DNA of 64,000 nucleotides. Source: Candidatus Anderseniibacteriota bacterium. Lineage in GTDB: Bacteria > Patescibacteriota > Andersenbacteria > UBA10190. The position numbers and the translations under genes were made by a program. Positions 5,275 to 41,441 of the stretch are shown one piece after another. The stretch is from assembly GCA_040900375.1 (NCBI GenBank), contig JBBDZC010000021.1, forward strand, positions 5,258 through 69,257, read 5' to 3'. The notes under the pieces were generated by a model. The model ran no database searches. It was not told the origin of the DNA and saw only the letters and a program-made list of their open reading frames with translations. Numbering within the stretch: the stretch's first letter is position 1; each line of letters begins with the position of its first letter.

Positions 5275-7065
5275 GTGTCACTACCCGATCAGGGGAGAGA
5301 TTACTACGGATTTTTACTACCTGGTATACTAAGAGCGATGCCTGACGCTGTTGATGAATCAACTTTGCGAAGTTTAGTTGAGCAAAAGCTGCTCACTGTG
5401 ACCCAAGCGGACGAGATTTTAAAAAAACTAGGAGAAGGGGGAGCCGACCTACACAGTTTGGTGGTTGATAGTGGCTTGATTAAAGATCATGACTTTACGC
5501 AGGTGCAAGCGGCCGTTCTCGGCATGACCTACATTGATTTACGAGCGGTCACCATTCCCCGAGAGCTGCTCAATATTATTCCTGAATCAACGGCGCGGGA
5601 GCACTTGATCGTAGCGTATGAGCAAACGGACAGTGAGTTGAAGCTGGCCATGGTCAATCCCAGTGATCGACAGATTGTCGAGTTTATCCGCAAAAAGGTG
5701 GATATGCCGATTGCGGTTGCCTTGGCGAGCCGCCAGGGGATTATGGCGGCCCTGCAGCAATACCAACAGACCCTGACACTTGAGCTGGAGAATGTGCTCG
5801 CCACGAGTAAGAGCGTGATGACGGAAGCCGATCTCAATAAAGCGGCGGAAGATTTACCGGTCGTGCGCATTACGGACCTCATTTTAAAACATGCTATTTT
5901 ACAGGGCTCATCTGACATCCATATTGAACCGACGGAACAGAACGTGATTGTCCGCTACCGCATTGATGGCATTTTGCATGATGCATTAACGCTTCCCCGG
6001 TATGTGCTCGCGGGTCTGGTGGCGCGGATTAAAGTCTTGAGCCGGTTGAAGATTGATGAGCATCGGCTGCCGCAAGACGGTCGCTTCAAGATTGAAAGTG
6101 AGGATTATAAGATTGCTTTTAGAGTTTCGATCTTACCTGTCTTTGATGGTGAGAAAGTAGTCATGCGTCTCCTGGATGAGTCGGGGCATGGCTTGGGGCT
6201 CGATAGCATTGGCTTGCGCCCGTCAGTCCTAGAAGTGTTTCGCCGTAACATTAACAAACCAAATGGGCTCATTTTAGTCACTGGCCCGACCGGCTCGGGA
6301 AAAACGACCACGCTCTATGCGGCGATGAAAGAGCTAAATCAGGCGGACGTAAACATTAGTACGGTGGAAGATCCAATTGAGTACCGTATGCCGCGCATTA
6401 ATCAGACACAAGTCAATCCTAAGATCGGCCTCACTTTCTCGAACGGCTTACGTTCACTGGTGCGTCAAGATCCCGACATTCTGATGGTCGGTGAAATTCG
6501 CGATGAAGAGACCGCCTCGCTAGCAGTCAATGCGGCGCTCACCGGTCACTTAGTGCTTTCCACGTTGCACACCAATAGTGCGGCCGGGGCCTTGCCGCGC
6601 CTGCTTGATATGAAGGTCGAAGCTTTTCTGGTCGCCTCGACGGTCAATCTCTTGATAGCGCAGCGTCTCGTGCGGCGGTTATGCCAAGAGTGTCGGCGCG
6701 AGCAGAAATTAACGAAGGATGTGGTGACGGAGTTAGCCAAGTCATTTAGTATAGAGACACTGGTGGCGACCTTGGTGCGGGAAGGGGTAGTGGCCGACAA
6801 GCAAGCTCTCGAAGACTTAGTGGTTTATGAAGCGGTTGGTTGTAAGCTGTGCCAGGACGGTTACAAAGGCCGCAGCGGGATCTATGAGTTGTTGGAAATG
6901 ACTGACTCGATTCGCAAGATTATTACTTCCAAGACGACAACGGCCGAACTGGAGGACGCCGCGCGAGCGGAGCAAGGCATGGTCACCATGATTGAAGATG
7001 GTTTTATTAAGGTGGTTGAGGGACAAACGACTATTGAAGAAGTGATGCGTGTTTCCATGGAGTAA
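5275..7065 (+). CDS. pilB: Type IV pilus assembly ATPase PilB (GspE family)
   Basis: N-terminal GSPII_E_N-like region, Walker A GPTGSGKTTT, tetracysteine motif CQECRRE...CKLCQDGY; GTG start with GGAGG 9 nt upstream. Confidence 0.9.
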   Translation: MSLPDQGRDYYGFLLPGILRAMPDAVDESTLRSLVEQKLLTVTQADEILKKLGEGGADLHSLVVDSGLIKDHDFTQVQAAVLGMTYIDLRAVTIPRELLNIIPESTAREHLIVAYEQTDSELKLAMVNPSDRQIVEFIRKKVDMPIAVALASRQGIMAALQQYQQTLTLELENVLATSKSVMTEADLNKAAEDLPVVRITDLILKHAILQGSSDIHIEPTEQNVIVRYRIDGILHDALTLPRYVLAGLVARIKVLSRLKIDEHRLPQDGRFKIESEDYKIAFRVSILPVFDGEKVVMRLLDESGHGLGLDSIGLRPSVLEVFRRNINKPNGLILVTGPTGSGKTTTLYAAMKELNQADVNISTVEDPIEYRMPRINQTQVNPKIGLTFSNGLRSLVRQDPDILMVGEIRDEETASLAVNAALTGHLVLSTLHTNSAAGALPRLLDMKVEAFLVASTVNLLIAQRLVRRLCQECRREQKLTKDVVTELAKSFSIETLVATLVREGVVADKQALEDLVVYEAVGCKLCQDGYKGRSGIYELLEMTDSIRKIITSKTTTAELEDAARAEQGMVTMIEDGFIKVVEGQTTIEEVMRVSME

Positions 7066-7297
7066 TTGCCGGGGCGATTGAGGGATTGTCAGTTCGGTTA
7101 TCGTTGCTCAAGAAAGTCTGTTAAACTAAGCACATTGATTAGTCTTTGAGCTTATTGTATGCCCCGTAGAATCACCTCGATCACCCTCTCGTCTTAAAAT
7201 ATATGGATACAATACCTACCAACCTTATTTGTCAGTCACCGCTTCCTCTCACCGCTGTCCGGCCTACGCCGGACATATCGAGGTAGCTCTACGGGGT

Positions 7298-8515
7298 ATG
7301 CCGATTTATACCTTCCAGGGTCGTAAGGAAACCACCGGTGAGATAGTCTCGGGTATGCGCGAAGCAACTTCGCATGCTGTTCTGGGGCAGGATTTATTAA
7401 CTGAAGGAATTCTCTTAACGCGCTACCAGGAGCAAAAACAGCGACTACCAGGAGCCAGTATTCTCTCGAGTTTTTTCTCACGGGTGCCCATTCTCGAGCG
7501 CGTGCTCTTTGCCCGGTATTTTTCTTTAATGCTTAGAGCGGGTCTCGATGTTAAACAAGCGCTGATGGCCTTAGGGCAGCAGACACGCAGTCGGCCAATG
7601 CGTACGGCTGTGGAATCAATTGTTCAGGGAGTAGATCGCGGCAGTACATTGGCTGATAGCATGGCGGTTTTCCCCCTGGCTTTTCCGGCAATCTTTGTCA
7701 GTTTTGTGCGGGTAGGGGAAACAACCGGCCGTCTTCAGGAAGCTTTGCAAGTCTTGGCGCAACAGTTGCAGAAAGAATATGAGCTGCGACGGGCAGTGCG
7801 GGGAGGATTGATGTATCCGGCCGTGATTCTGACGGCATTGATTGCTGTCGGTTTTGCGATGTTGGTATTCGTTGTGCCCAAACTTGCCGAAGTTTTTGAG
7901 GGCTTCAAGGTAGAGTTACCCCTGCCCACGCGTATTTTAATTGGTCTCGGTGATTTTTTTTCGAGTTATTGGTACCTCGTCATCGCGGGAAGCATCCTGA
8001 GTATTTTTGGCTTGACGTTGCTGCTACGAATTCCTTCTTTTAAAGGCAGCATCCTGCACGCCTTTTTATTTATGCCAATTATCGGACAGATTATGCAGCA
8101 GGTGAATCTGGCGCGCTTTACTCGTAACTTAAGCTCGCTGCTTAAGAGCGGTGTTTCCTTTGTGGAGGCACTCGAAATTTTGGGTGTCAATACCCCTCAT
8201 CCCAGCTATGCTCGGGTCTTTGCGGGAGCGAAGGAACACGTCAAACAAGGTAAATTATTGAGTGACTTTTTGGTTGATTTTAAGCGACTCTTTCCCCCGT
8301 TGGTGGTCAACGTTATTAAAGTGGGCGAAGAAACAGGAGCCCTCGACGAAGTGTTGCAGGAAATTGCACTTTTCTACGAAGGAGAAGTTGATCAGACAAT
8401 GAAGAATTTAACCTCAATTATGGAGCCTGTTTTAATGGTAATTATTGGCTTGGCGGTCGGGGCCTTGGCAATCTCGGTCATCTCGCCCATCTACAATTTA
8501 GTGAACGTTATCTAA
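7298..8515 (+). CDS. pilC: Type IV pilus inner-membrane platform protein PilC (GspF family)
   Basis: Two T2SSF-like repeats and 3 TM segments; start chosen at ATG 7298 (MPIYTFQG...), longer ORF begins with TTG at 7229. Confidence 0.85.
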   Translation: MPIYTFQGRKETTGEIVSGMREATSHAVLGQDLLTEGILLTRYQEQKQRLPGASILSSFFSRVPILERVLFARYFSLMLRAGLDVKQALMALGQQTRSRPMRTAVESIVQGVDRGSTLADSMAVFPLAFPAIFVSFVRVGETTGRLQEALQVLAQQLQKEYELRRAVRGGLMYPAVILTALIAVGFAMLVFVVPKLAEVFEGFKVELPLPTRILIGLGDFFSSYWYLVIAGSILSIFGLTLLLRIPSFKGSILHAFLFMPIIGQIMQQVNLARFTRNLSSLLKSGVSFVEALEILGVNTPHPSYARVFAGAKEHVKQGKLLSDFLVDFKRLFPPLVVNVIKVGEETGALDEVLQEIALFYEGEVDQTMKNLTSIMEPVLMVIIGLAVGALAISVISPIYNLVNVI

Positions 8516-8565
8516 AGTCTGTTAGTTAGTATTTTGCCTCAAGTTTTATGACCGGGAGATGGGTA

Positions 8566-9894
8566 GTGACTAAACGCGCAGCGCATAGGGGCTTTACGAT
8601 CATCGAATTACTCATTGCGACATTTATTATCGGGACGGTCGTGACCGGCCTCTTCGGGCTTTTTGTTTTAAATTTACGCGCGGCGCAAGAAGGCGAGCGG
8701 CGCCTGGTGGCGATTGCGTTGGCAAATGAGCGGGCAGAAATGATTCGCAATTTACCCTACAGCAATGTGGGAACGAGTGGCGGGATCCCGGCCGGCAGTA
8801 TTTTGCAGGAGGAAGTTATTGCCAGGCCCACTTCGACCTACACCGTGCGGACTGATGTTCGCTATGTCGATGACTCTTTTGATGGGACGGCTGGCGGCGC
8901 GCCAAACGATACTGTCAATACTGACTACAAGCAGGCTCGCATTGAAGTGGCGTGGCAGAGTCCCTCGTCGCCTGCTCCTATCCTCTTGGTCATGGTGGTA
9001 GCGCCCCCGGGCGTGGAAGGAGGAGAAGCAGCAGGGACATTGAGCTTCCAAGCCTTAAACGCCGCTGCTGCTGGGATACCCGATGCGAGCTTGCGGATTG
9101 TGAACATGGCAACTAATCCGACGATCGATGTTACGACGAACACGGATAACAACGGTCGCATTCTCTTGCCTGGGCTGCCCGAAAGTGCGGGCAGCTATGA
9201 GCTAACTCTGACTAAGGCAGGCTACACTAGTGAGCAAACATATACTGAAACGGCAACCTTTATTCCTGATACCGACCATGCCCATCTCTCGATGCTCCAA
9301 GGACAGGTGACTCCTAAGACATTTAGTATTGACCTGGTAAGCGAGATGGCGATTGCCACCCAAGACGAAGAGCTGCAGCCGCTGGGTAACATTGCCTACA
9401 GCTTACGTGGGACTAAGACGATTGGTGTTGATGAGACGGAGACACCGGTCTATCGTCTCAATGTCCAAGAGCAAACGAACGCTAGTGGCACAGCGACTCA
9501 CCCTGATATTATCTGGGATAGCTATGATTTTTCTATTGATGGGTTAGCCACCGGCTATGATATCAAAGAGACCAGTATGCTGTTGCCGGCCAAGGTGAAC
9601 CCAGGAGAGCAGGCTGATCTTACCGTGACGCTTGTGCCCCATACACCGATTTCTCTCCATGTGACCGTGGCTACACCCGAGGGGTTGCCCATTGATAACG
9701 CAACCGTCCAGCTGACCCAAGTTGGTTACGACACCACATTAGGGACTGGGGCCTTGGGCCAAGTCCTCTTTACTGACTTGCCCTTTAACGCTGATTATAC
9801 GCTCTCTATTACCGCTCCCGGCTGGCAAGTTTTTAATGAGGTGATAACTGTGACTAATACGACGCGGACACGGGCTGAACTGACTAGCGCATGA
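8566..9894 (+). CDS. Large prepilin-like protein (type IV pilin N-terminus + carboxypeptidase-regulatory-like beta-sandwich domains)
   Basis: Leader M(V)TKRAAHRG|FTIIELLIA with G-1, F+1, E+5 and hydrophobic helix; later NMATNPTIDVTTNTDNNGRILLPGLP...YELTLTKAGY resembles CarboxypepD_reg fold; GTG start at 8566 preferred over ORF-track start 8548. Confidence 0.7.
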   Translation: MTKRAAHRGFTIIELLIATFIIGTVVTGLFGLFVLNLRAAQEGERRLVAIALANERAEMIRNLPYSNVGTSGGIPAGSILQEEVIARPTSTYTVRTDVRYVDDSFDGTAGGAPNDTVNTDYKQARIEVAWQSPSSPAPILLVMVVAPPGVEGGEAAGTLSFQALNAAAAGIPDASLRIVNMATNPTIDVTTNTDNNGRILLPGLPESAGSYELTLTKAGYTSEQTYTETATFIPDTDHAHLSMLQGQVTPKTFSIDLVSEMAIATQDEELQPLGNIAYSLRGTKTIGVDETETPVYRLNVQEQTNASGTATHPDIIWDSYDFSIDGLATGYDIKETSMLLPAKVNPGEQADLTVTLVPHTPISLHVTVATPEGLPIDNATVQLTQVGYDTTLGTGALGQVLFTDLPFNADYTLSITAPGWQVFNEVITVTNTTRTRAELTSA

Positions 9895-10538
9895 GACAGT
9901 TATTTACTAAACGACAGGCCGACTTAACCAGCCAACGGGGCCTGACGGCTCTGGAAATTGTGATTACGGTCATGATTAGCTCTCTACTGATTGCGGCTCT
10001 TTTGCGGTTTATGTCATTCGGTCATCCGCTGGCAAAAACAGCCTATCTTCAAGCGCAATCTACTGACACTGCGCGACTCCAACTCAAACGTATCGCTAAA
10101 CTATTGCGGGAAGCACGCTATGCCGATACGGGTGCCTATCCCTTACTGGAAGTTAGTCCCCAGCGAATCATTTTCTTTGCTAATGCTGATACGGATGCAA
10201 CCACCGAACGTATTCGCTATGAACTCAATGGCACCAACCTGGAGCGAGGTATGGTTAAGCCGAGTGGAGATCCTTTAACCTACGACCTAGCCCAGGAGCA
10301 AGTGACGGTCGTTACCAGCGCCGTGCGTAATGGCAGCGACCCAATCTTTACCTACTATACTGGTGATTATCCGGCTGACCCTACACCGCTCACCCCCACC
10401 GACCTTACCGAGGTGAAGTATATTCAGTTCCGCTTGCTCATTGACGCTGACCCGGCGATTGATCCGCCGGCCATTGAAGTAGTTTCGCAGGTTCAACTAC
10501 GCAACCTTAAAACGAACCTAGGGGAGACAGTCGAGTAA
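9891..10538 (+). CDS. Minor pilin / pseudopilin with prepilin-type N-terminal signal
   Basis: TSQRG|LTALEIVITVMISSLLIA; 4-nt overlap (ATGA) with upstream pilin gene. Confidence 0.7.
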   Translation: MRQLFTKRQADLTSQRGLTALEIVITVMISSLLIAALLRFMSFGHPLAKTAYLQAQSTDTARLQLKRIAKLLREARYADTGAYPLLEVSPQRIIFFANADTDATTERIRYELNGTNLERGMVKPSGDPLTYDLAQEQVTVVTSAVRNGSDPIFTYYTGDYPADPTPLTPTDLTEVKYIQFRLLIDADPAIDPPAIEVVSQVQLRNLKTNLGETVE

Positions 10539-10551
10539 ACGGCACCGGGAC

Positions 10552-11193
10552 TTAAAAGCGAATATTCGTTTGAGGCAGGCGCTGGCGGATTTGCTCTTTA
10601 GCTTGATCGGGGAAAAGATTTTTCGTGAGAGAGAGTTCGCGGAGATTAGTCAAGTTGGCGATCTCTGGCGGCAGATTCTGGAGCTGGTTAGCATCAAGCG
10701 TAAGCCGTTCGAGGTTTGTCAATTGACCAATTTCCGGCGGTAGAATTATTAGTTTGTTGCCGCTCAAAAGCAGTGATCTAAGCTCTGGTAAGTCGCCGAT
10801 CTCGGGGGGGAGCTGGGTGAGGCCTTTAGAGTTTAAATTGAGTGTGACGAGACTGGTAAAACGGTTGATAGTGGGAGGCACGGCTTTGATCGGATCATTC
10901 TCGACGATGTGGCAGACTTTTTCTGGCTCGCGGAGGGCTTGAGCGATGCTCGTGTAAACCTTTTGCGGATCTTCCGTGCAGAACGCTTTAAAAGTTCGCC
11001 CGGTATTGGCCAGCGGCAGGGAGAGGGGTGAGGTCAGCGGTGAGGCAAGAGGAGTATTTAAGGGCCGCTTAAGAGCAAAAGTTATCAAGAAAGAAGCACC
11101 GAGCACAGTCGCTATCACCACGAGGAGAACAACAATGAGCACAGTCGTGTTCACTTTTTTTACGGGAAGCTGGGGGTTGACAGAGAGAGGCAT
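10552..11193 (-). CDS. Membrane-anchored leucine-rich repeat (LRR) protein
   Basis: N-terminal TM then five or more LxxLPPEIGxLxNLxxLxLxxNxL repeats. Confidence 0.75.
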   Translation of the reverse strand: MPLSVNPQLPVKKVNTTVLIVVLLVVIATVLGASFLITFALKRPLNTPLASPLTSPLSLPLANTGRTFKAFCTEDPQKVYTSIAQALREPEKVCHIVENDPIKAVPPTINRFTSLVTLNLNSKGLTQLPPEIGDLPELRSLLLSGNKLIILPPEIGQLTNLERLTLDANQLQNLPPEIANLTNLRELSLTKNLFPDQAKEQIRQRLPQTNIRF

Positions 11194-11330
11194 AGACAGA
11201 AGGAATAACGCTTGTATTGTACGACTAAATTAGAAAGAGTACCAGCGTTCACGAGAGAGAATACTTTTTGGCCGTCACTTGTATACCTGGTCTTAAGTGG
11301 CCAAACGCCTTACAATTATTTCTATCACCT

Positions 11331-11834
11331 ATGTTTCCTTCTCTAGGCCGCTTAGGCAACCGCGGCAGCATTATGCTGTTAGTATTAATTCTCCTTGTCG
11401 TGTTTGTGATCATCATGACCGCTTCCGTCCGTTTCATTGCGCGCCAGTCGACCCAGACTGCCAATCAAGAGCAAGAGGAGCAGGCGTTTGAGATCGCCGA
11501 TGCTGGTATTAACTACACCCTGTGGTTGCTCGATTCCGAGGGCGGCAACTTTACGCCAGAACAGCTTGAGGCAGGACCGGATGGCGGCGGTCCGCCAACG
11601 GCGGATACTGAAAATCACCTCATCCACAATGATCAGAGTGAGCTTATCGGTAGGTTTTCGCTGGATTTTTCCGATGCTGATAACGTGGCGGGAGTTTTAA
11701 CTGTCCGCGCCACGGGCAAAGACGAGATTAAACCCGATCTTTGTCAGGTGATCGAGGCGAAAGTCCAGAAAGATGCTAACGGTGAGTACCGCCTCTATCG
11801 GTGGGACCACTTGGTAGGGTATCCTTGTTCTTAA
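11331..11834 (+). CDS. PilX N-terminal-domain protein (pilus-associated, TM anchored)
   Basis: GSIMLLVLILLVVFVIIMTAS followed by AFEIADAGINYTLWLL, matching the PilX_N pattern also seen in the 14743 gene. Confidence 0.6.
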   Translation: MFPSLGRLGNRGSIMLLVLILLVVFVIIMTASVRFIARQSTQTANQEQEEQAFEIADAGINYTLWLLDSEGGNFTPEQLEAGPDGGGPPTADTENHLIHNDQSELIGRFSLDFSDADNVAGVLTVRATGKDEIKPDLCQVIEAKVQKDANGEYRLYRWDHLVGYPCS

Positions 11835-11853: not shown

Positions 11854-13209
11854 ATGACCCCTTCTCGTTTACGGCACCAACGCGGCTTTTCGCTGGCGGA
11901 GGTAATTATTATGGTCGCCATTGGCACGGTGGTGATCATCGCCCTGGCTATTTTTGTCGGGCGATCATTTACGGTATCACGGGAACAGTTTGAACAGGTA
12001 CGCATCACCGAAGACGGCCGGAAAGAAATGGAGCGCATGAGTGATACTCTGCGTAACGCTAGCTACGTGGACTTAGACGGTAATGGCTACACCATGGATG
12101 TGGGTGAGCAGTGGCTGCAAGTTGGTAAAGAATACGAGATTAGGGTTTTTAGTAATGTTGACATCGATCCGGAAATGGAACTCGTGCGCTATTTTGTTGA
12201 TAGTGCCGAGCCAACCGAGCTTAAGCGAGGAGTGATTGAACCTGATGGTACAGCATATAACTCGCCCGAGAGCATCCAGATACTTTCGCGCAGCGTGCGC
12301 AACTTGCAGCAGGAGACGCCCATTTTTTCTTACTATGATGTCAATGGTGCGGCCCTTGCGCCGCCGGTGAGTGGGGACACACTCAAAGCAGTCGCGCGCG
12401 TTGGCATTGACCTGAAAATAGATATTACGGCGCAGATCCGTCCGGATTCAGCCTTGCTTTACACTGAAGTGTCACCGCGTACTAATCGGTGTTCCGCGTA
12501 TGAGGGATGCACCAGTGGTGCTGGAGATGATAGTGGCGGTACTGGCGGTACGGGTTGTGTTGATCCCGGGGGAGCACAGTTGCCTACCTGGTCGTATAAG
12601 TCGCCATCTTTTGTGGAAGACGCGGGGCAAACCTGTAAGGCGCGGTGCGAGACGGAGGGAAGTACCACCACGTGTCCCTGGTTTGTAACCTTTTCTTGGA
12701 ATGGTGACCCCGAGGGCTATGTGGCCGCCTACTGCTCATGTCAAGAAGCAGTCTACCCAATACCGTTGCCCGACAACCGACAGTACGGTCAGTACACCCA
12801 GTACTACAAAGATCGGTGGAATGGGTGTGTGGCTCAAGGCCAATCGGGTGAAGTATACTGTGATCCAGGGTATGACTTACCCCAAGACGAGCTACGCCCC
12901 TGCGGGTACCAATGTAGTGCTGCTTCCCCTGCACCGAGCCCGAGTGACGTAGCGGTTGATCTTAAAGTCAACAACAGCGATGGGCCAGTTGGTGTAAGTT
13001 ATAACGATTTTGTGACGCTTAGTTGGACTTCAGCAAACGCTACTAGTTGCACGGCGTCTGATGCCTGGTCAGGAACCAAGAGCCCCGAGGGATCAGAGGT
13101 TAACGGGCCATTAACTGATGTCACAACGCCCTATATTTTTACACTTACCTGCACGGGGCCGAGCGGGGAGGCACAAGACAGCGTGACGGTTAATGTTTCT
13201 ATTGTCTAA
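11854..13209 (+). CDS. Large cysteine-rich prepilin-like protein with C-terminal Ig-like domain
   Basis: RHQRG|FSLAEVIIMVAIG class III signal; about 18 Cys between residues 210 and 360; C-terminal beta-sandwich-like region VAVDLKVNNSDGPVGVSY...TLTCTG. Confidence 0.7.
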   Translation: MTPSRLRHQRGFSLAEVIIMVAIGTVVIIALAIFVGRSFTVSREQFEQVRITEDGRKEMERMSDTLRNASYVDLDGNGYTMDVGEQWLQVGKEYEIRVFSNVDIDPEMELVRYFVDSAEPTELKRGVIEPDGTAYNSPESIQILSRSVRNLQQETPIFSYYDVNGAALAPPVSGDTLKAVARVGIDLKIDITAQIRPDSALLYTEVSPRTNRCSAYEGCTSGAGDDSGGTGGTGCVDPGGAQLPTWSYKSPSFVEDAGQTCKARCETEGSTTTCPWFVTFSWNGDPEGYVAAYCSCQEAVYPIPLPDNRQYGQYTQYYKDRWNGCVAQGQSGEVYCDPGYDLPQDELRPCGYQCSAASPAPSPSDVAVDLKVNNSDGPVGVSYNDFVTLSWTSANATSCTASDAWSGTKSPEGSEVNGPLTDVTTPYIFTLTCTGPSGEAQDSVTVNVSIV

Positions 13210-13237
13210 GACCGAGCGGGTGGGGTATAACCTGAAT

Positions 13238-14632
13238 ATGCTGCTGACACAACGAGATTTTTTAGTGCTGGCCGTTTTCATAGGGATTGGCTTGGTGACG
13301 CATTTTTCTGTTCTCGGCTGGCCCGACCAGGTGATCTTTGATGAAGTTCATTTCGGCAAGTTTATTACCGCCTATTGCTGCACGGGCGAGCGCTTTTTCG
13401 ATATTCATCCGCCGCACGCTAAATTACTGATCGCCGGTACAAGCTGGCTGGGCGGTTACCGAGGCGGCTTTGCCTTTGACCATATTGGGCAAGTCTACGA
13501 GGGAGTCCCTATAGCTGCGATGCGCTTTGTGCCAGCGGCGGCGGGGATGATATTGCCGCTGGTGATCTTTGTGGTGATCCGCCAATTAGGCGCATCATTT
13601 GGGGTTGCGTTGGTAGGAGCTGCCGCAGTGCTGCTGGACAACGCGCTGACTATTCAAACTCGGGTGATTGCTTTGGATGGTGTGTTGCTTGTGGCTACGT
13701 TTGGTAGTTTAAGTGCGTACCTAGCGGGTGAGCGAGCTCACGGCTGGCACCAGGCCGGTTATTTCCTGTTGGCGGGGGCTTTAGCGGGGTTGGCAGCCGG
13801 GACAAAGTTTACCGGTTTAGCCGCATTGGGATTACTCGGAGCAATTGTGGTGGTACGTATGTTGCAGCGTATAGACAAACAGACCGTGATGGCTGGCATT
13901 ACTAATGGCTTACTTATTGTGGCCAGCGCGCTGATTGTGTACCTGGCGGGTTGGGTGCTGCATTTTGCACTTTTACCTCTCCCGGGGAGCGGGGATGCTT
14001 TTCATGTGCCTCATAGTTTATTGCCGCCGCAAAGGCCCAATCCCAGTAGTTTCTTGCGAGAAACAGTGGCTCTCCATAAGGTGATGTTTACCGCTAACTA
14101 TAATCTTACCGCGACTCACCCCAATGCGAGTTCATGGTGGAGTTGGCCGCTAATGCAGATGCCCGTATTCTATTGGACGGACACGGCGGGGTTGCGCCAT
14201 ATATATTTTGTCGGTAATCCGGTAGTCTGGTGGGGAGTAACGCTATTATTTGTCGTTGCCGTCTTGGTTTGGATTATTCAGCTCGGCCAGCGCCGGCGCG
14301 AAGCCGCCTCCGGCATTATATGGATTAGTGTCGTTGGCTTTTGCATTGCGATGCTGCCTCTTGTTCGTGTGCCCCGCGCTCTCTTTCTCTATCATTATTT
14401 GACACCGCTTCTCTTTTCGCTGCTAGCGGGACTTGTCTGGCTGGATCGAGAGCTAGCTCGGGTGCGCCTTACGCTAGCGGGGCAGCGGAGACTTATAGTG
14501 GGAGTCTTAGCGGTTCTCCTGGCAGGGTTTTTGTTCATGAGCCCACTGACGTATGGTTTGAAGCTGGGTGAGACCACGCTCGAGAAAGACGCTCGTTTGC
14601 AGACAATACTCTTTTGGTTGCCGGGACCATAA
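13238..14632 (+). CDS. GT39/PMT-family (GT-C fold) dolichyl-phosphate-mannose protein mannosyltransferase-like membrane glycosyltransferase
   Basis: VIFDEVHFGKF...FDIHPPHAKLL matches the PMT loop-1 DE motif; about 10 predicted TM segments. Confidence 0.75.
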   Translation: MLLTQRDFLVLAVFIGIGLVTHFSVLGWPDQVIFDEVHFGKFITAYCCTGERFFDIHPPHAKLLIAGTSWLGGYRGGFAFDHIGQVYEGVPIAAMRFVPAAAGMILPLVIFVVIRQLGASFGVALVGAAAVLLDNALTIQTRVIALDGVLLVATFGSLSAYLAGERAHGWHQAGYFLLAGALAGLAAGTKFTGLAALGLLGAIVVVRMLQRIDKQTVMAGITNGLLIVASALIVYLAGWVLHFALLPLPGSGDAFHVPHSLLPPQRPNPSSFLRETVALHKVMFTANYNLTATHPNASSWWSWPLMQMPVFYWTDTAGLRHIYFVGNPVVWWGVTLLFVVAVLVWIIQLGQRRREAASGIIWISVVGFCIAMLPLVRVPRALFLYHYLTPLLFSLLAGLVWLDRELARVRLTLAGQRRLIVGVLAVLLAGFLFMSPLTYGLKLGETTLEKDARLQTILFWLPGP

Positions 14633-14742: not shown

Positions 14743-16128
14743 ATGAGGTCCTTCTTGGCGAGGGGAAGAAGTGCGCGCCGGGGCAGTATTTTGATCATGA
14801 CATTGGTTTTTATGTCAATGTTTGCCGTCATTTTTATTGCCTTATCCGGCTTAGTCAATCGTTCGTACCGGGAGACCGTCTTGCAAGCGCACGACGAGTT
14901 GGCTTTTCAGATCGCGGAGGCAGGACTTAACTATGCCCGGTGGCGCTTGGCACATGAACCCGAAAATTTTTCGGCGGAAAGCAAGACCGTCACTGATCAG
15001 TTTGCTGGTGACTTGGGAACTTATGATCTTACTTTTGATTCACCTATTGAGGGGGGGACCATCACGGTCATTACCGCAGTGGGAAAAACTGCCTCGCAAC
15101 CACTGCGGGAGGTAACGCTGCGCGCGCGGTACGGCATACCTTCGCTGGCCCGGTACGCCTATATTACCAACAGTGATGTTCGCTATGCCGCCGTCATGAG
15201 AGGACCCTTTCACGCCAATGGCGGCATCCGCATGGACGGTACGTCGGATAGTATTGTCCAGAGCGCTAAGACCACTTATACGTGTCGGCCGATCCATGGG
15301 TGTGACAACGAGACAAAGCCGGGCGTCTGGGGTACCGGCGAGATTCAAGAACTCTGGGAATTTCCGGTCACGGCGATTGATTACAATGCCTTAACCAATG
15401 ATTTAGCAACTATGAAAACCATTGCTCAAGAGGCTACTACCTACTACGGCGCCTCGGGAGCGTTTGGCTACCAAATAGTTTTTAATGCTGATAATACGTA
15501 TGCTCTTTACCGGGTGACTCAAAAGACGAGCCCGGTAGATTCGTGTGATTATAACGCCAGTGGGGAGTTTAGCTGCACGAGTCTTTCTCATGATGTGCAA
15601 ACGATGGCGTTGCTCGAGACGAAACCAGTGCCGTCCGGCGGGGTACTTTTTATTGAAGACAACTTGTGGGTGCGGGGAGAAATTAGAGACCGGATTACCG
15701 TCGCGGCGGGGCGGTTTCCGGATTCACCGGCCACGCATGCTGATATTATTACTAACGGTAATATCACGTACGGAGGGGTTAAAGATGGCACACGGGTCTT
15801 TGGCGCCATTGCCCAGCGCAATCTGCTCATTCCTTATTCTGGTGCGCCTGATGTCTTTACCCTTGACGGGGCGTTTATTGCCCAAAAGGGAAAATTTGGA
15901 CGACGTCATTATCCTTCTGGTAGCCATCGCCTGAAAACAAGTATTGATATTTATGGCATGGTGGCCAGCAACTTAGTACCAGGGACCACGTGGACGAGTG
16001 GAGGAACAGTGGTCAGCGGCTACCAGGAGAAAGTACAATCCTATGATCCTAATCTACTTTATAATCCACCCCCTTATTTTCCAACTACGGGTCAGTACGA
16101 ATTTATTTCATGGGAAGAGGAGCAGTAA
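14743..16128 (+). CDS. Large PilX N-terminal-domain protein (pilus-associated)
   Basis: GSILIMTLVFMSMFAVIFIALSG then AFQIAEAGLNYARWRL, paralogous to the N-terminus of the 11331 gene. Confidence 0.6.
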   Translation: MRSFLARGRSARRGSILIMTLVFMSMFAVIFIALSGLVNRSYRETVLQAHDELAFQIAEAGLNYARWRLAHEPENFSAESKTVTDQFAGDLGTYDLTFDSPIEGGTITVITAVGKTASQPLREVTLRARYGIPSLARYAYITNSDVRYAAVMRGPFHANGGIRMDGTSDSIVQSAKTTYTCRPIHGCDNETKPGVWGTGEIQELWEFPVTAIDYNALTNDLATMKTIAQEATTYYGASGAFGYQIVFNADNTYALYRVTQKTSPVDSCDYNASGEFSCTSLSHDVQTMALLETKPVPSGGVLFIEDNLWVRGEIRDRITVAAGRFPDSPATHADIITNGNITYGGVKDGTRVFGAIAQRNLLIPYSGAPDVFTLDGAFIAQKGKFGRRHYPSGSHRLKTSIDIYGMVASNLVPGTTWTSGGTVVSGYQEKVQSYDPNLLYNPPPYFPTTGQYEFISWEEEQ

Positions 16129-16229
16129 GAGATCGATTAGGTCTTGGCCTATGTTACCACCACCAGCAAATGTTATACTAAATGTACACCACTACTTTGG
16201 TGGCCGTCCTACATTGGCATATACTCTAT

Positions 16230-17255
16230 ATGATCGGTATTGATATTTCTGATCGCTCTGTGAAAGTGGTGCGGCTGTCAAATCGGGCTGATCACAAGCT
16301 GCTGACGCACTGTTGGCAGGAAGTCCCTCTCAATGTCATTGAGAAAGGGGTCATTAAAGACACTAAAGTGATGCAAGAAGTGTTGCGTCATGCTCTGCAG
16401 CGGTGCAATTTGAGTTGGGATAGCAAGGATGCCGTGGTGGCTTCAATTCCAGAGACACAATCATTCTTACGGGTGATTGAAATTCCGCTCATGGACGAAA
16501 GCGAGATTGGTGAGGCAATTCAATGGGAAGTGGCTCAGCATATTCCCTTTGGTTTAGAGAATGTCTACATTGATTGGCAACCAATCCATAGCGGTAAACC
16601 GCCGACGCCGGGCCGCCACGAAGTGCTTGTCGGGGCGGCGGAAAAGAGTGTGGTTGATCCTCTCTTGCACGTGCTCGCGACGATTGGTTTAGACATTGCG
16701 GCCTTTGAATTAGAGAGCCAGGCCATTGTCCGGTCGCTGGTTTCGCGTGAACTTGAACAACATCGCGGTCTCCTGATTGTCGATTTGGGTGGCTCGGCAA
16801 CTAATGTGGTTATTTACGACCGGGGAACGATTCGCTTCACCGCCAGTTTACAGAAAGGGTCCTACAGCCTTCTCCACCCGCTCACGCCCACCGAGGCGCA
16901 AGCGGTCACTGGTCCGCCGAAAGAAATTGTGGAAGCGGACCGAGCCATGCTCGCCTCCAAGTTACAAGCTGTGCATGAAGAGTTGGTAATTGAAATTCAG
17001 GGCATTGTAGAGTTTTACAATGGCATTGACACAAACCACCAGGTTAAGGAAATTATCCTCACCGGCGGGGGCGCCAATTTACCCGGTTTCGATCAGGCAG
17101 TACTCAAGTATTTTGATAATGTGCTGGTCCATCGCGGTAATCCATGGGTTAATATCTTGCCTCCCGGGAAGGACGCTCATCCGCCTTTTGGCTTATTAGA
17201 AGCGGTTCATTTCTCCACAGCGCTGGGGTTAGCACTGCGGGCAGCGGTTAAGTAA
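16230..17255 (+). CDS. pilM: Type IV pilus assembly protein PilM (actin-like ATPase), copy 1
   Basis: MIGIDISDRSVKVV start, ASKHA fold motifs (DLGGSATNV, LTGGGANLPG). Confidence 0.85.
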   Translation: MIGIDISDRSVKVVRLSNRADHKLLTHCWQEVPLNVIEKGVIKDTKVMQEVLRHALQRCNLSWDSKDAVVASIPETQSFLRVIEIPLMDESEIGEAIQWEVAQHIPFGLENVYIDWQPIHSGKPPTPGRHEVLVGAAEKSVVDPLLHVLATIGLDIAAFELESQAIVRSLVSRELEQHRGLLIVDLGGSATNVVIYDRGTIRFTASLQKGSYSLLHPLTPTEAQAVTGPPKEIVEADRAMLASKLQAVHEELVIEIQGIVEFYNGIDTNHQVKEIILTGGGANLPGFDQAVLKYFDNVLVHRGNPWVNILPPGKDAHPPFGLLEAVHFSTALGLALRAAVK

Positions 17256-17263
17256 ATCTGGCT

Positions 17264-17800
17264 ATGAAAGAAGAAATAAATTTACTCCCACCAGCTTTTC
17301 AAAAGTTACGACGCCGGCGGATCTACCTGGTGCGTATCGGTGAGCTTATGCGCCGCATTGATTTCGTGATCATTCTCATTGGGATTGTGTTTGTCGCACT
17401 CTACGGTGCTCTTTTTAGTTTGCAGGCTAATTTGGAGCGCAAGCTCGCGGCCGCGGGTACAACCGAGCAAAGCACAGAAGAAAGAGTTCGTTCAGTTAAT
17501 GAGTTGCTGACAGCAGTCCATAGCCGTACTGTGCCGGTGCTACCATGGATGCCGGGGGTAGGGCAAATCATTCAGTTGTTGCCGCCGAGTATTGTGCTGA
17601 CAGAATTAAGATTGGACGAAGTGAAAAATGTTCTCACGATCCAGGGAATATTCTCGGATCGCCAGGCGATTGTTAAGTTTGAGCAAGAGGTGGCAGCTCT
17701 CCCCTGGGTCGAAAAAGTGGAAGCGCCCCTGCGGAATTTTGCCACGGGTGAGAAAACGGAATTTACCTTTACGGTGACTCGTAAAATAAAAAAGCCATGA
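17264..17800 (+). CDS. pilN: PilN-like protein, copy 1
   Basis: N-terminal INLLP motif followed by single TM. Confidence 0.75.
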   Translation: MKEEINLLPPAFQKLRRRRIYLVRIGELMRRIDFVIILIGIVFVALYGALFSLQANLERKLAAAGTTEQSTEERVRSVNELLTAVHSRTVPVLPWMPGVGQIIQLLPPSIVLTELRLDEVKNVLTIQGIFSDRQAIVKFEQEVAALPWVEKVEAPLRNFATGEKTEFTFTVTRKIKKP

Positions 17801-18438
17801 ACACTCTTCTCCAGGCCCGTGAGCGGCGGTTGTTGTTTAACCGGGGATTGGAACTACTGATTATCGTGGTCTTAATTATTGCTTTGTTTTACTTTCGGGA
17901 ACTCATCCATAGTAAGCGCGTCATGGTCTACCAATTGCAACGTCAGCTTGATGAGGCGCCACAATATGCCGCGCAGCAAGTTAGTTTGCGGACGGAGCTG
18001 GAGAAATCAGCCCATGATATTGTCCGGATTGAGTCCTTGCTCGTCCGACGCGAAGCGCTCGGCGATTTTGTTAGCTTATTAGAAAAGCAGGCACGGCAGA
18101 ACAGGGTGACGCTGCGGGTGCCTGACATTAAAGAAGAAATGGTCCTTAGTGCCGAAGGCAAGCCGGTGGCGGCGACCGGGCCGTATCGCGACATTCGTCT
18201 GCAAGTTACCGCGACCGGTGAGCCCAATGACTTACTCCAACTGCTCCATCAATTAGAACACCTGCCGCATGCTGTTCGTTTGCCGGCCTGGAGTATCACC
18301 ACCACTAACACAGCGGTGTTACTTGATCTTCGTCCCCAGGCACCAGTGATCGGACCTGATGGCAAAGAGGTACCAGTGGTGGCTCCTGGGGGATTACTCG
18401 AAGCCACGATGATCTTAACTATTCGCCAAGATTCATGA
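17797..18438 (+). CDS. pilO: PilO-like protein, copy 1
   Basis: Position after pilN with 4-nt overlap; N-terminal TM and coiled-coil region. Confidence 0.55.
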   Translation: MNTLLQARERRLLFNRGLELLIIVVLIIALFYFRELIHSKRVMVYQLQRQLDEAPQYAAQQVSLRTELEKSAHDIVRIESLLVRREALGDFVSLLEKQARQNRVTLRVPDIKEEMVLSAEGKPVAATGPYRDIRLQVTATGEPNDLLQLLHQLEHLPHAVRLPAWSITTTNTAVLLDLRPQAPVIGPDGKEVPVVAPGGLLEATMILTIRQDS

Positions 18439-18797
18439 AGAAAAAACTGCCGGCAATCCGTATCCGCATGGTGGGCGCGAGCCTGGGACGTGCAGCCCGC
18501 GCTGTACCCCAGTATCTGCTCTTTCAACATCCACTAGCAGTGCAGGTAGTGTTACTGCTCGTGGGTATGGGCTTGGGATTATATGTTGTCTTACGGGTAC
18601 TCTTTACTGATCCCACTGAACTCTCACTTGAGGTGTCGCAAAAGATACCGCAGCTTATGACTGAACAGTTAGATGAACTAGAGTTCTGGATCGAAGAACA
18701 GCACGCGGCATTTTCTACGCCCTTACCGCTGGGGACGCGACAATATTTTCAGGTGATTCGGGAGGGGCAAAGCCAGGTGATCCAGGAACCATTTTAG
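18435..18797 (+). CDS. Small single-TM protein, 4th gene of pilMNO module 1 (PilP-like role possible)
   Basis: 4-nt overlap with pilO; hydrophobic segment VVLLLVGMGLGLYVV. Confidence 0.4.
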   Translation: MKKKLPAIRIRMVGASLGRAARAVPQYLLFQHPLAVQVVLLLVGMGLGLYVVLRVLFTDPTELSLEVSQKIPQLMTEQLDELEFWIEEQHAAFSTPLPLGTRQYFQVIREGQSQVIQEPF

Positions 18798-18849: not shown

Positions 18850-19911
18850 GTGAATATGATTGGCATTGACATTTCTGATCGGTCGATAAAGGTTGTCGAA
18901 ATTTCCGGAGGGGAAAACCCTAAACTTCGTACGGTCTGTTGGTCGGCACTTAACCCTAATCTTATTCGGCGCGGTATTGTGCAGGATGTGGCGGCTGTGA
19001 TGCAGGGCTTAGAACAGGCGCTCAACAAATGCTCGCCGGTGCCGGTAGAGGGAAAACGAGTGGTGTTATCTATTCCGGAAACACAATCATTTGTACGTGT
19101 CCTGGATTTACCCGCGATGAGTGAACGAGAAATGAATGAAGCAGTGCAGTGGGCGATTCGCCAGCACATCCCGTTTGACTTAGAGCGTGTCTATCTTGAT
19201 TGGCAACCGCTGGCGACATCACAAACTACCCCCACTCACCGCCAAGTGCTTGTGGGTGCGGCCCAGCGCGATGTCATTGATCCGCTGCTCCAAGTAGTGG
19301 ATGCTCTGGGTCTGGAAGTAGCGGCGCTCGAATTAGAAGCCCAGGCGATTGTCCGTTGCCTCTTGCCGCAAAATGCGGCCGATGTCATGGGGGTTTTGCT
19401 GGTTGATTTAGGGGCAACCTCTACGAATGTTATTTTTGTCGATGAAGGGGCAATGCGCTTTACGACAAGTATTCAGCAGGGCGGTGATGACTTAACGCAG
19501 CAGTTGGCGCAAGAGTTCAAACTGCAGCCCACGATTGCGGCGGAGAAAAAAGCTTTAATTGGAGTCCAAACTAATGGTAATGAGGCGCAGATTGCGGCGA
19601 CGCTACGCTCGGCCACGCTGCGTCTGGTCCAGCAAGTCAGTCAAGTGGTCACGGAATATACGTCCCAGTTACAATCATCACAGGGGCTTCGGGCAATTCT
19701 TTTGGCTGGAGGCGCGGCAAATTTACCAGGCTTGGTCAGTATTTTTGCAGAAGTCTTTCCTGGTATACCCGTCCAGCTTGGCAATCCATGGATTAATCTG
19801 ACGATGGGTAATGGCAAGGAGACAAGTCCGCCTCTCTCGAATGCGGATGCGGCGCACTTTACCACGGCGATTGGCCTCGCTCTCCGGTCGTTAGAGTACG
19901 CGCCGCGGTAG
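18850..19911 (+). CDS. pilM: Type IV pilus assembly protein PilM, copy 2
   Basis: About 50 percent identical to copy 1 (IGIDISDRS, IPETQSF, HIPF, VLVGAA, ALELE-QAIVR blocks conserved). Confidence 0.85.
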   Translation: MNMIGIDISDRSIKVVEISGGENPKLRTVCWSALNPNLIRRGIVQDVAAVMQGLEQALNKCSPVPVEGKRVVLSIPETQSFVRVLDLPAMSEREMNEAVQWAIRQHIPFDLERVYLDWQPLATSQTTPTHRQVLVGAAQRDVIDPLLQVVDALGLEVAALELEAQAIVRCLLPQNAADVMGVLLVDLGATSTNVIFVDEGAMRFTTSIQQGGDDLTQQLAQEFKLQPTIAAEKKALIGVQTNGNEAQIAATLRSATLRLVQQVSQVVTEYTSQLQSSQGLRAILLAGGAANLPGLVSIFAEVFPGIPVQLGNPWINLTMGNGKETSPPLSNADAAHFTTAIGLALRSLEYAPR

Positions 19912-19927
19912 ATCTGGATTTTTTACT

Positions 19928-20509
19928 ATGCGTGAAATTAATCTTTTGCCTCCCTCGCGCCGTCAATCCCTGCGGCGGGAAGTGACGTTGGCTTCCATCG
20001 GACGTTTTTTGAGTAGCTTAATGGTCGGTTTAGGCATGCTGACTGTTGGGGCAGTGTTGGCGATGATCGGTTTGTGGATTTTCTTCTATACTGTGGCCGC
20101 GACCAATAATGTTGAGTTTGAGCGGACCATTGCTCAGTATCGTGAGCTGCGAGATGGAATTGCCGAGCAGAATATTTTTCTTAATTACATTTATGGCTTA
20201 GGCACCGGGCGGCAAGTATGGTCTGATTTTTTGCCAGGGTTGTTTACTAGTATTCCTCCCGGTGTGGAGATTGCCACGATGAGTGGGCGATCGGTTATAA
20301 ATGAGGAAGGGGTAGTGGAGAGTACTTTTACTGTTTCAGGGCGGGCCGCGGCGCGTAGTACACTCACCATTTTTGCTGATCGCCTGCGTCTGTTGCCCGA
20401 CGTGGCTCAGGTTGATGCACCCAGTTCTAATTTGATTCAGCGAGAGAACCCACTGTATCGCTTTACCCTGCAGTTAAAAGACAAGATAATTGAGGAGGAA
20501 GAGCTATGA
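19928..20509 (+). CDS. pilN: PilN-like protein, copy 2
   Basis: MREINLLPP motif plus TM. Confidence 0.75.
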   Translation: MREINLLPPSRRQSLRREVTLASIGRFLSSLMVGLGMLTVGAVLAMIGLWIFFYTVAATNNVEFERTIAQYRELRDGIAEQNIFLNYIYGLGTGRQVWSDFLPGLFTSIPPGVEIATMSGRSVINEEGVVESTFTVSGRAAARSTLTIFADRLRLLPDVAQVDAPSSNLIQRENPLYRFTLQLKDKIIEEEEL

Positions 20510-21111
20510 AAGTCTTGGCCCAAACGAGGACCAGCCAACAGTATCAAAAAATCGTACTTCGCTCGATTATGCTGGTTATTTTAATCGTGGCCCAGCCTTT
20601 TCTATGGAGTATGGTTGCAGGTGTAGCCAATCGGGTCCATGCGCAACAGTCACAGAAACAACAGATTATCGATGTGCAGGCCCGCACTGCCCAAATTAGA
20701 GAAATTAATGTCAGCCAGAAAGAATTTCTTGATCAGCTTGATGTGGTGGTACCGCTGGCGGGCTCACTGTCCCAAATTATTGAGCGGCTGGAGCGCTTAG
20801 CCACCGACCGGCAGCTGCGGTTGTCAATTCTTGATATCAAGGAAGATGTTTTGGAGGAAGCAACGGATTTGGAGAATATTCCGGTGCAGCGTTTTCGGAT
20901 TAGCTTGCAGGTTACGGGCACCCCCGCCCAGTTGTTGACCTATATTGATGCGGTGGAGCATGTACAGGAATTGACTATTTTGGAGGACTGGTCCTTTGTG
21001 GCAGCCACGGCCCCGGTTAGTTTCCCGGCTCCGGATGCGGTCTATCCTTATACCGCGACGATGAGCCTTTTATTCTTTTTACAGTCGGAAATCGATGCCG
21101 TCGAAGAGTAA
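20506..21111 (+). CDS. pilO: PilO-like protein, copy 2
   Basis: Position and topology equivalent to copy 1; 4-nt overlap with pilN2. Confidence 0.5.
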   Translation: MKVLAQTRTSQQYQKIVLRSIMLVILIVAQPFLWSMVAGVANRVHAQQSQKQQIIDVQARTAQIREINVSQKEFLDQLDVVVPLAGSLSQIIERLERLATDRQLRLSILDIKEDVLEEATDLENIPVQRFRISLQVTGTPAQLLTYIDAVEHVQELTILEDWSFVAATAPVSFPAPDAVYPYTATMSLLFFLQSEIDAVEE

Positions 21112-21433: not shown

Positions 21434-21452
21434 TAGAGAAGAGCGAGCGACC

Positions 21453-25845: not shown

Positions 25846-25969
25846 AGGCTTTTTTAGGGTAACACCTTTACCGAACAAAAGGGAAACCCTTTGCTCTTTA
25901 AGGAGGCGCGGGCGCTGCTTTAGATACGCCTATTTGCTCGTCTCTGGACATCTGCGATACGATACAGAG

Positions 25970-31834: not shown

Positions 31835-31836
31835 CT

Positions 31837-39198: not shown

Positions 39199-39210
39199 CT
39201 CTTCGCCACT

Positions 39211-41437: not shown

Positions 41438-41441
41438 AGTC

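Follow-up and report, generated by a model that had tools for sequence, protein, structure and literature searches.

We find that a 64-kb stretch of DNA from a Candidatus Anderseniibacteriota bacterium (assembly GCA_040900375.1, contig JBBDZC010000021.1, positions 5,258 to 69,257; this whole stretch is hereafter called the window) carries, at 13238..14632 on its forward strand, a gene for a full-length bacterial-type protein O-mannosyltransferase (PMT) of glycosyltransferase family 39 (GT39), an identification that is solid by each sequence and fold criterion. The gene lies inside a type IV pilus cluster, as an initial annotation made from the DNA sequence alone had claimed, and this position proves to be conserved throughout the lineage with operon-like spacing. 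The best-supported interpretation of the arrangement, in which we place moderate confidence, is that pilus proteins are substrates of O-mannosylation by this enzyme.

In Andersenbacteria-type Patescibacteria, a PMT gene was inserted into the part of the type IV pilus operon that encodes minor pilins, where it has stayed with operon-like spacing. In the mechanism we propose, it would be co-transcribed with the minor and accessory pilins. With a polyprenyl-phosphate sugar as donor, the enzyme would attach a hexose (most likely mannose) to Ser/Thr residues in unfolded Pro/Ser/Thr-rich segments of pilus proteins. Transfer would take place on the outer face of the cytoplasmic membrane, during or after Sec insertion, while the pilus proteins are membrane-anchored and before they are assembled. 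The expected products are O-mannosylated pilus tip or accessory proteins, and further exported substrates are probable, such as the linker-bearing cupredoxin-like protein encoded at locus L015 (see below).

Identity of the enzyme

Two Pfam models match the predicted protein strongly, namely PMT (PF02366), which covers aa 31-249 with 125.9 bits (cutoff 22.7; E = 2.5e-36), and PMT_4TMC (PF16192), which covers aa 287-464 with 121.2 bits (cutoff 32.4; E = 5.2e-35). At E <= 0.01 the Pfam scan returned these two alone, with no Wzy_C or further family, and no NCBIfam model matched. A phmmer search of all PDB sequences gave matches exclusively to fungal Pmt4 (9i5k, E = 1.3e-46; 9e61, E = 2.3e-44), Pmt1 (6p25_A, E = 4.1e-45) and Pmt2 (E = 1e-25). 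The loop motifs on which the initial annotation had based its call of a PMT/GT39-like GT-C enzyme, VIFDEVHFGKF and DIHPPHAKLL, are found at aa 47-57 and aa 70-79, and Pfam, PDB, and fold evidence all agree with that call.

The alignment with Pmt1 consists of two blocks, with residues 309-529 of ScPmt1 bridged by only aa 274-283 of the window PMT. Because the aligned blocks pass over Pmt1 ~310-528, the luminal MIR domain is concluded to be absent, and no MIR match was found by Pfam on the window PMT. The MIR domain, which resides in loop 5, is restricted to eukaryotic PMTs and is lacking from bacterial ones. The MIR-less layout is thus the bacterial architecture and is compatible with GT39 membership.

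An AlphaFold2 (AF2) model built from a 21-sequence alignment (predicted local distance difference test, pLDDT, 83.1; predicted template modeling score, pTM, 0.88) contains ~11 transmembrane helices, where the initial annotation had counted about 10. Its first external loop has two helices, and its fourth has a beta-hairpin (residues 327-337). Query-normalized TM-scores (TMq) from Foldseek are 0.83-0.84 to Pmt4 and Pmt1 (9i5k_A, 6p25_A) and 0.46-0.53 to the other GT-C enzymes AglB, PglB, ArnT and STT3, with ArnT at 0.46. A PMT_2/ArnT-like identity was rejected on both the Pfam domain scores and these fold scores.

The maximal open reading frame (ORF) spans 13193..14632 (+) and comprises 479 aa, and position 13238 is its second in-frame ATG (M16). 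A purine-rich element, GGGTGGGG, is located 11-18 nt 5' of this ATG, and homologs align from about the same point onward, with query coverage of ~96%. For these two reasons, we regard 13238..14632 (464 aa) as the likelier coding sequence. A start at 13193 would create a 17-nt overlap with the stop of the upstream gene. We rejected the reading of the gene as a pseudogene or fragment, because the ORF is full-length and every conserved residue is intact. A promoter and terminator scan of the 5-22 kb region was uninformative, with counts at or below those of shuffled controls and no terminator between PMT and its neighbors.

Catalytic residues and predicted activity

Mutagenesis of the Mycobacterium tuberculosis enzyme (MtPMT) established that D74, D176, R441 and Y444 are essential, and these residues have been equated with D77, D189, R649 and F652 of ScPmt1 (PMC12331936). 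In C. glutamicum, activity likewise depends on the two residues of the DE motif, D65 and E66 (PMC11727336). Counted via the phmmer alignment with Pmt1, the equivalents in the window PMT are D50 (followed by E51), D162, R395 and F398. The conserved catalytic Asp-Glu pair of which the initial annotation spoke is borne out by this alignment, in which D50-E51 (within VIFDEVHFG) falls on D77-E78 of ScPmt1. D50, E51, D162, R395 and F398 are all invariant in the 21-sequence alignment; among 80 relatives, D50-E51 is invariant and the other three residues are kept in 79-80, although conservation of D50 and E51 in this larger set is partly selected because one of the two retrieval patterns held the DE motif. 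The counts for D162, R395 and F398 are free of this bias. In addition, R111 aligns with R138 of ScPmt1, a residue of importance to Pmt1 activity. Since the essential residues are present and conserved, the enzyme is judged to be intact and is apparently catalytically competent.

One could suppose instead that the protein is inactive, serving for example as a structural accessory of the pilus machinery that has the PMT fold and transfers no sugar. Such a role would fit the lack of a donor synthase gene near PMT in the Andersenbacteria loci and the presence of one locus (L085) in which PMT is split into two ORFs. Yet each of the 32 pilus-linked copies strictly conserves the essential residues, along with many others that are invariant across the family, and the window gene is a full-length ORF with 96% coverage by homologs. 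We therefore consider an inactive protein highly improbable.

The topology demonstrated for MtPMT places its N-terminus in the cytosol and its catalytic loops outside (PMC12331936), and from this topology and the PMT fold it follows that the window PMT has its active site on the outer face of the cytoplasmic membrane. It has also been proposed that the hairpin of the fourth external loop of MtPMT recognizes proline-rich motifs (PMC12331936). The window PMT has both the hairpin (residues 327-337) and the Rx2-aromatic motif that line the peptide groove in MtPMT. This observation bears on another reading, wherein the protein would be a GT-C enzyme that, like ArnT-like PMT_2 enzymes, acts on a non-protein acceptor such as a glycolipid or a cell-wall polymer and has no protein substrate. 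Also at odds with that reading are the strong and specific matches to PMT and PMT_4TMC rather than PMT_2, and the fold scores (TMq 0.83 to Pmt1/Pmt4 versus 0.46 to ArnT). To our knowledge, all characterized GT39 enzymes act on protein acceptors. In its favor, GT-C is a shared fold that is used with lipid-linked donors and many acceptor types (PMC11127046), and in loci without nearby pilus genes the pairing of PMT with a glycosyltransferase family 2 (GT2) gene (11/49) and with a ~620-aa protein that has multiple transmembrane segments (22/49) resembles three-component glycan modification systems. On this evidence we judge a non-protein acceptor improbable.

A conserved position in the minor-pilin operon

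The best PMT homologs (identity up to 64%) and the related contigs are labeled Candidatus Andersenbacteria or Patescibacteria; NCBI ranks Andersenbacteria as phylum Ca. Anderseniibacteriota, within the Parcubacteria group. In contigs from Logan, NCBI and JGI whose PMT homologs are 45-60% identical, the order PilB-PilC-pilins-PMT-(~460-aa protein)-PilM recurs. Scanning one genome per GTDB species gave 80 PMT loci, whose six-frame ORFs were searched with the pilus proteins of the window and whose PMT sequences were arranged in a neighbor-joining tree computed without support values. In this tree the PMTs of Andersenbacteria type, from 28 loci and the window, make up a single clade (the Andersen clade), where many third-party annotation records carry the label ‘uncultured Candidatus Saccharibacteria’.

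PMT lies inside the pilus cluster in 27 of the 28 informative loci of this clade (L085 counted), with PMT identities of 40-64%; L029 was uninformative, being a 2.2-kb contig. The gaps between PMT and the flanking pilus genes are short (median 46 nt on the upstream side, 41 nt on the downstream side), and several loci have overlaps of 4 or 10 nt. Two loci (L042 and L010) have additional pilin sets after PMT, so that the gene is still flanked by pilins. At L085:9992-11493, where the split PMT is represented by ORFs of 330 and 240 aa, unrelated genes stand between the PilW-like gene and PMT; this copy may be a pseudogene or an assembly error. The cluster in the window is composed as follows.

5275..7065 (+): PilB-type assembly ATPase (Pfam T2SSE, E = 9e-130, plus MshEN)
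7229..8515 (+): PilC-type platform protein (Pfam T2SSF, E = 1.4e-56)
8548..9894 (+): PilV-like prepilin with CarboxypepD_reg domains, 448 aa, core minor pilin (N_methyl, CarboxypepD_reg, TIGR02532, weak PilV match)
9891..10538 (+): PilW-like prepilin, 215 aa, core minor pilin (GLTALE signal, weak PRK10557 match)
10552..11193 (-): membrane-anchored leucine-rich repeat (LRR) protein (Pfam LRR_14, LRR_4, LRR_8)
11268..11834 (+): PilX_N/GspK-like accessory minor pilin, 188 aa, called X188 (PilX_N E = 2.6e-5, 24.6 bits, just missing the cutoff of 25.5; weak GspK match)
11854..13209 (+): Cys-rich accessory prepilin, 451 aa, 14 Cys (N_methyl E = 5e-4, GFSLAE signal, PRK10557 E = 3.5e-6)
13238..14632 (+): PMT of family GT39 (Pfam, phmmer against PDB, AF2, Foldseek)
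14743..16128 (+): PilX-like protein, 461 aa, the usual 3' neighbor of PMT (BLASTP to X188, ortholog alignment)
16182..18797 (+): first PilM / PilN-like / PilO-like / small-protein module (PilM_2 E = 3e-32, ORFs, conserved order in related loci)
18850..21433 (+): second, tandem PilM / PilN-like / PilO-like / small-protein module (ORFs, conserved order; PilM_2 in the counterparts of L001, L003, L004 and L006)

A reciprocal search starting from the PilX-like gene returned 11 contigs in which PMT directly precedes a copy of Andersen type (54-64% identity). The same search returned at least 50 contigs of other lineages of the Candidate Phyla Radiation (CPR), whose PilX-like proteins are 33-43% identical, with the order PilB-PilC-PilV-like-PilW-like-PilX-like and no PMT. 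In these PMT-free loci the PilW-like gene is followed directly by the PilX-like gene. Because this CPR-wide core operon occurs without PMT, we conclude that its PMT-bearing form arose in the Andersen lineage, by insertion of the gene after the PilW-like gene and ahead of the PilX-like gene. Accessory PilX_N-like genes and large Cys-rich pilin genes often accompany it.

The neighbors of PMT conform in part to the initial annotation, which described a giant Cys-rich prepilin gene upstream and a PilX_N gene downstream. The upstream product is Cys-rich, but with 451 aa it is not giant. The downstream product is PilX-like, in that BLASTP aligns its N-terminus with the PilX_N region of X188 (38% identity over 76 aa, E = 2e-9), but it has no significant Pfam PilX_N match of its own and no match to any Pfam family; weak Pfam PilX_N matches are present in 7 of 22 orthologs. 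This protein is the most conserved pilin-like component of the cluster (mean column identity of 60% over the 22 orthologs), and its family has more than 517 relatives in JGI metagenomes. The PilX-like genes always come after PilV-like and PilW-like genes, and their products share the C-terminal motif YDPNLLYxPPPYFPT...F(I/L)SWEE. A profile search of the PDB with the family gave nothing at E <= 1, and a single-sequence AF2 model was unusable (pLDDT 36.6).

Candidate acceptors

If pilus proteins are modified, the sites would lie in unfolded Pro/Ser/Thr-rich segments. Using a criterion of at least 75% Ser/Thr/Pro over 20 aa (for example, SPTPSPSPSPSPSGSPSPSP), we found that proteins of the pilus locus carry (PS/PT)n linkers in 11/32 loci that have PMT and in 1/50 that lack it (Fisher p = 8e-5), with the caveat that two thirds of the PMT-carrying loci have no long linkers. 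The numbers of candidate ORFs per locus are alike in the two groups (4.8 and 5.1, respectively). Actinobacterial GT39 enzymes load inter-domain PS/PT linkers with tens of hexoses (PMC11727336). At L088, a gene for a protein with a (Thr-Pro)n linker stands upstream of the PilX-like gene, where the contig ends.

In the window itself, the two acceptor stretches suggested by the initial annotation are present, but both are short and not conserved. TNTTRTR is found at aa 436, in the C-terminal part of the PilV-like prepilin, which has a GFTIIE class III signal and is kept across CPR pilus loci. SPAPSPS is found at aa 358 of the Cys-rich prepilin, within a short SAASPAPSPSD linker ahead of the C-terminal domain.

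A pilus-directed or a general enzyme

A number of points weigh against the view that pilus proteins are the substrates of this enzyme. First, everything that we conclude beyond family membership we infer. Second, the window pilins reach at most 50% Ser/Thr/Pro in any 20 aa. Third, the PilV-like, PilW-like, and PilX-like proteins of PMT-carrying loci have no Ser/Thr enrichment relative to those of PMT-free loci, with values slightly lower if anything, and composition thus does not point to the core pilins in particular as the acceptors. Fourth, because all PMT-carrying pilus loci belong to one clade, neither the linker enrichment nor the synteny is phylogenetically independent.

A fifth point concerns the sugar donor. 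GT39 enzymes use polyprenyl- or dolichyl-phosphate-mannose, which is made by GT2 enzymes of the Ppm1/DPM1 type. With six GT2 proteins that neighbor PMTs in other loci as queries, phmmer found no such donor synthase in the 64-kb window (E <= 10), and none lies within 10 kb of PMT in any Andersen locus. Pfam and NCBIfam annotation of ~35 other window ORFs revealed family 4 glycosyltransferases (GT4s), a family 130 glycoside hydrolase (GH130), and sugar-nucleotide enzymes, with no GT2. Elsewhere, the GT2 protein encoded next to PMT at L081 bears a GtrA/DPMS transmembrane domain, and several proteins are annotated as ‘dolichol-phosphate mannosyltransferase’ in other CPR genomes (PMC6031116, PMC4736985). 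The NTP_transferase of the window is closest to mannose-1-phosphate guanylyltransferase, with a score well under the cutoff.

Sixth, two exceptions to the co-retention of enzyme and pilins are known among the informative loci, all others of which keep both together. In L015, an Andersenbacteria locus, PMT stands alone between a cupredoxin-like and a CTP_transf_like gene (L015:9442-11723) and the pilus cluster is gone. The same flanking genes are seen elsewhere, with the cupredoxin-like gene preceding PilB in L006 and the CTP_transf_like gene following the pilus cluster in L001 and in the window (21402-21863). The L015 cupredoxin-like protein has a long Ser/Thr/Pro-rich linker after its membrane anchor. 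This locus argues that either PMT is useful without this pilus cluster or the pilus genes have been relocated, and because PMT was kept after the pilus cluster was lost, a role dedicated exclusively to pilins is doubtful. The second exception is a single lineage (L098/L103) in which the PilX-like-PilMNO genes follow unrelated genes and no PMT is adjacent. Finally, the studied actinobacterial PMTs are general enzymes (PMC11727336, PMC12331936), and most CPR PMTs, which occur in housekeeping neighborhoods, apparently are too.

These observations bring to the fore an alternative in which the window PMT is a general housekeeping protein O-mannosyltransferase with many exported substrates, its site in the pilus operon is a historical accident, and pilins are not preferred. 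The L015 arrangement (with a Ser/Thr/Pro linker in the protein encoded beside PMT), the general nature of the characterized bacterial enzymes (PMC11727336, PMC12331936), the housekeeping surroundings of most other Patescibacteria PMTs, and the absence of extra Ser/Thr from the core pilins of PMT-carrying lineages all speak for it. What it does not readily account for is the retention of the intra-operon position down to 40% PMT identity, with overlapping genes or very short gaps, the enrichment of PS/PT-linker proteins in PMT-carrying pilus loci, and the independent adjacency of PMT and pilus genes in L065, L076, and L081/L086. We regard a general enzyme of this kind as rather unlikely, while recognizing that the two ideas overlap, because a general enzyme could mannosylate pilins too. 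Sugar-coated pili are the likeliest, though still putative, purpose of the pilus-operon PMT in the Andersen lineage.

Other lineages and origin

Distant Patescibacteria PMTs (31-38% identity) are mostly found among housekeeping genes (ThrRS, MiaA, MiaB, GatB). Pilus genes adjoin 5 of ~20 of them, which is more than expected for a random gene in a ~1 Mb genome, though the numbers are small. The arrangements are as follows.

L076: multi-transmembrane protein-PMT-PilB-PilC, with a PMT-PilB gap of 41 nt
L065: PMT preceded by a prepilin-PilX-like-prepilin set, with a minus-strand gene in between
L082: PilB/PilC divergent, 3.7 kb from PMT
L081, L086 (Parcubacteria): PMT-GT2-RuvX-DedA-PilM-N-O

The PMTs of the Andersen clade are 43-49% identical to those of Myxococcota, Bdellovibrionota, Nitrospirales, and Pseudomonadota metagenome-assembled genomes, compared with 31-38% for other Patescibacteria, and the neighbor-joining tree groups them with the non-CPR set. 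The closer identity and the tree grouping both suggest horizontal acquisition by the Andersen ancestor, and the PMT of this clade is probably of non-CPR origin. A fuller scenario, which we advance only tentatively as a possible course of events, is that the Andersenbacteria ancestor took a GT39 gene from non-CPR bacteria into its minor-pilin operon, and that this led to O-mannosylation of tip pilins and accessory pilins, many of them bearing (Pro-Ser/Thr)n linkers.

The 49 loci without nearby pilus genes are mostly from non-CPR bacteria, with other Patescibacteria making up the remainder, and an adjacent GT2 gene is found in 11 of them. Side by side with PMT in 22 of the 49 (from non-CPR phyla and several Patescibacteria) is a gene for an uncharacterized multi-transmembrane protein family of ~620-680 aa, examples of which are at L005:8122-9993, L020:5693-7540 (-), L076:7883-9934, and ~20 other loci. 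This protein has no match to a Pfam family and is absent from the 64-kb window. Its role in bacterial PMT systems may be that of a partner or of a second GT-C enzyme.

Other features of the window

Within the pilus cluster, the LRR protein gene (10552..11193) has the opposite orientation and breaks the operon amid the pilin genes; its product carries a Pro/Leu/Ser-rich stalk. LRR matches are likewise present in the pilus loci L011, L025 and L042. Duplication of the PilM/N/O module is retained in most Andersenbacteria-type loci, and some have a single module.

No small major pilin gene was found within the pilus cluster of the window. The sole other protein with a class III signal is encoded far from the cluster, at 43878..44615 (-), adjoining ArgRS. 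This prepilin of 245 aa has a perfect GFTLIE signal and a Laminin_G_3 (LamG) domain, and is possibly a lectin-like or major pilin. On the 3' side of the pilus cluster are genes for a DsbA-like thioredoxin (25934-26674) and a PrsW-family protease (26686-27627). This pair recurs in L001, and PrsW is found in L004 and L006. The DsbA-like protein would fit with Cys-rich pilins.

A GH130 protein resembling beta-1,2-mannobiose phosphorylase (226 bits, under the NCBIfam cutoff) is encoded next to three GT4 glycosyltransferases, with a GT4 fragment nearby (38065-42548 and 46728-47387). The GH130-like protein and the GT4 group indicate that the organism metabolizes mannosides. A transfer-messenger RNA (tmRNA; Rfam RF00023, 87.8 bits) lies directly 3' of a SmpB-like ORF (coordinates 30790-31239 and 31431-31837). 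The 32-35 kb stretch that follows it has low coding density, with short ORFs only.

Significance and comparison with known systems

Of the organelles by which CPR/Patescibacteria may contact their hosts, type IV pili have the best support. O-glycosylation sites of Saccharibacteria pili have been predicted, by computation only (PMC11623550). The PMT/GT39 family as a whole has been investigated in fungi, animals, and Actinobacteria. Although prokaryotic GT39 genes have been reported from thousands of bacterial genomes, the prokaryotic enzymes have been studied in Actinobacteria only, and their benefit is unclear (PMC11727336). In the literature that we searched, we came across neither a PMT in a pilus locus nor pilin O-mannosylation, in keeping with the statement in the initial annotation that a PMT in this role is undescribed. 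What makes the arrangement of interest is that it suggests a defined group of substrates on which a PMT from outside Actinobacteria can be tested, together with a natural contrast for the function of pilus mannosylation, because sister CPR lineages have the same pilus operon with and without PMT. If our interpretation is correct, PMTs would be a third enzyme family for pilin O-glycosylation beside TfpW-type GT-C enzymes and PilO/PglL, the Andersenbacteria pilus would be the first of type IV with O-mannosylation, and the enzyme would be the first PMT outside Actinobacteria and eukaryotes with a defined cellular role. The modification would also become a candidate for what determines host recognition or phage evasion by these episymbiotic ultrasmall bacteria.

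The closest characterized counterparts in architecture are the actinobacterial GT39 enzymes (M. tuberculosis Rv1002c/MtPMT, S. coelicolor Pmt, C. glutamicum Cg_1014). They have the same PMT and PMT_4TMC domains, ~11 transmembrane helices, and no MIR domain, with the same DE motif, second Asp in external loop 2, and Rx2-aromatic motif in external loop 5. The same polyprenyl-phosphate-mannose donor is expected, as is the preference for Pro/Ser/Thr-rich unfolded segments of exported proteins (PMC11727336). However, the actinobacterial enzymes that have been studied serve many exported proteins (PMC12331936, PMC11727336), whereas the window PMT belongs to a CPR/Patescibacteria host and is embedded in a minor-pilin operon, with no Ppm1 found near it in the 64-kb window. 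It is also nearer in sequence (43-49% identity) to uncharacterized PMTs of Myxococcota, Bdellovibrionota, and Pseudomonadota. The fungal enzymes Pmt1, Pmt2 and Pmt4 (6P25, 9E61, 9I5K) provide the best sequence and structure matches, with a nearly identical catalytic loop (VxFDEVHFG). In contrast to these, the window PMT has no luminal MIR domain, and it would draw its sugar from a bacterial polyprenyl phosphate, not from a dolichyl phosphate.

TfpW of P. aeruginosa (a GT-C arabinofuranosyltransferase) and the O-oligosaccharyltransferases TfpO/PilO and Neisseria PglL are encoded by genes that neighbor pilin genes, and they O-glycosylate Ser/Thr residues of pilins. Pilin arabinofuranose glycosylation is also mentioned in PMC11127046. 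The initial annotation invoked these enzymes as precedents, and the analogy holds for gene placement but does not extend to homology. Like them, the window PMT is a polytopic membrane enzyme encoded alongside pilin genes, and it would use a lipid-linked donor on the outer face of the cytoplasmic membrane. No sequence relationship to these enzymes was detected by Pfam (the matches are to PMT and PMT_4TMC only, with no Wzy_C) or by NCBIfam (no match to any model). The window PMT would transfer a monosaccharide from polyprenyl-phosphate-mannose, unlike PilO/PglL, which use an undecaprenyl-diphosphate-oligosaccharide, and unlike TfpW, for which the donor is decaprenyl-phosphate-arabinofuranose. 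Furthermore, its gene is located among minor pilin genes rather than beside a major pilin gene.

Finally, three-component periplasmic glycosylation systems combine a GtrB-type GT2 enzyme, a flippase, and a GT-C enzyme. PMT relatives from non-CPR bacteria and Parcubacteria (L081, L086) resemble them in adjoining a GT2 gene, the expected donor-synthase partner. In the window and the Andersenbacteria neighborhoods, GT2 and flippase genes are absent, and the acceptor of PMT is presumably a protein rather than a polysaccharide.

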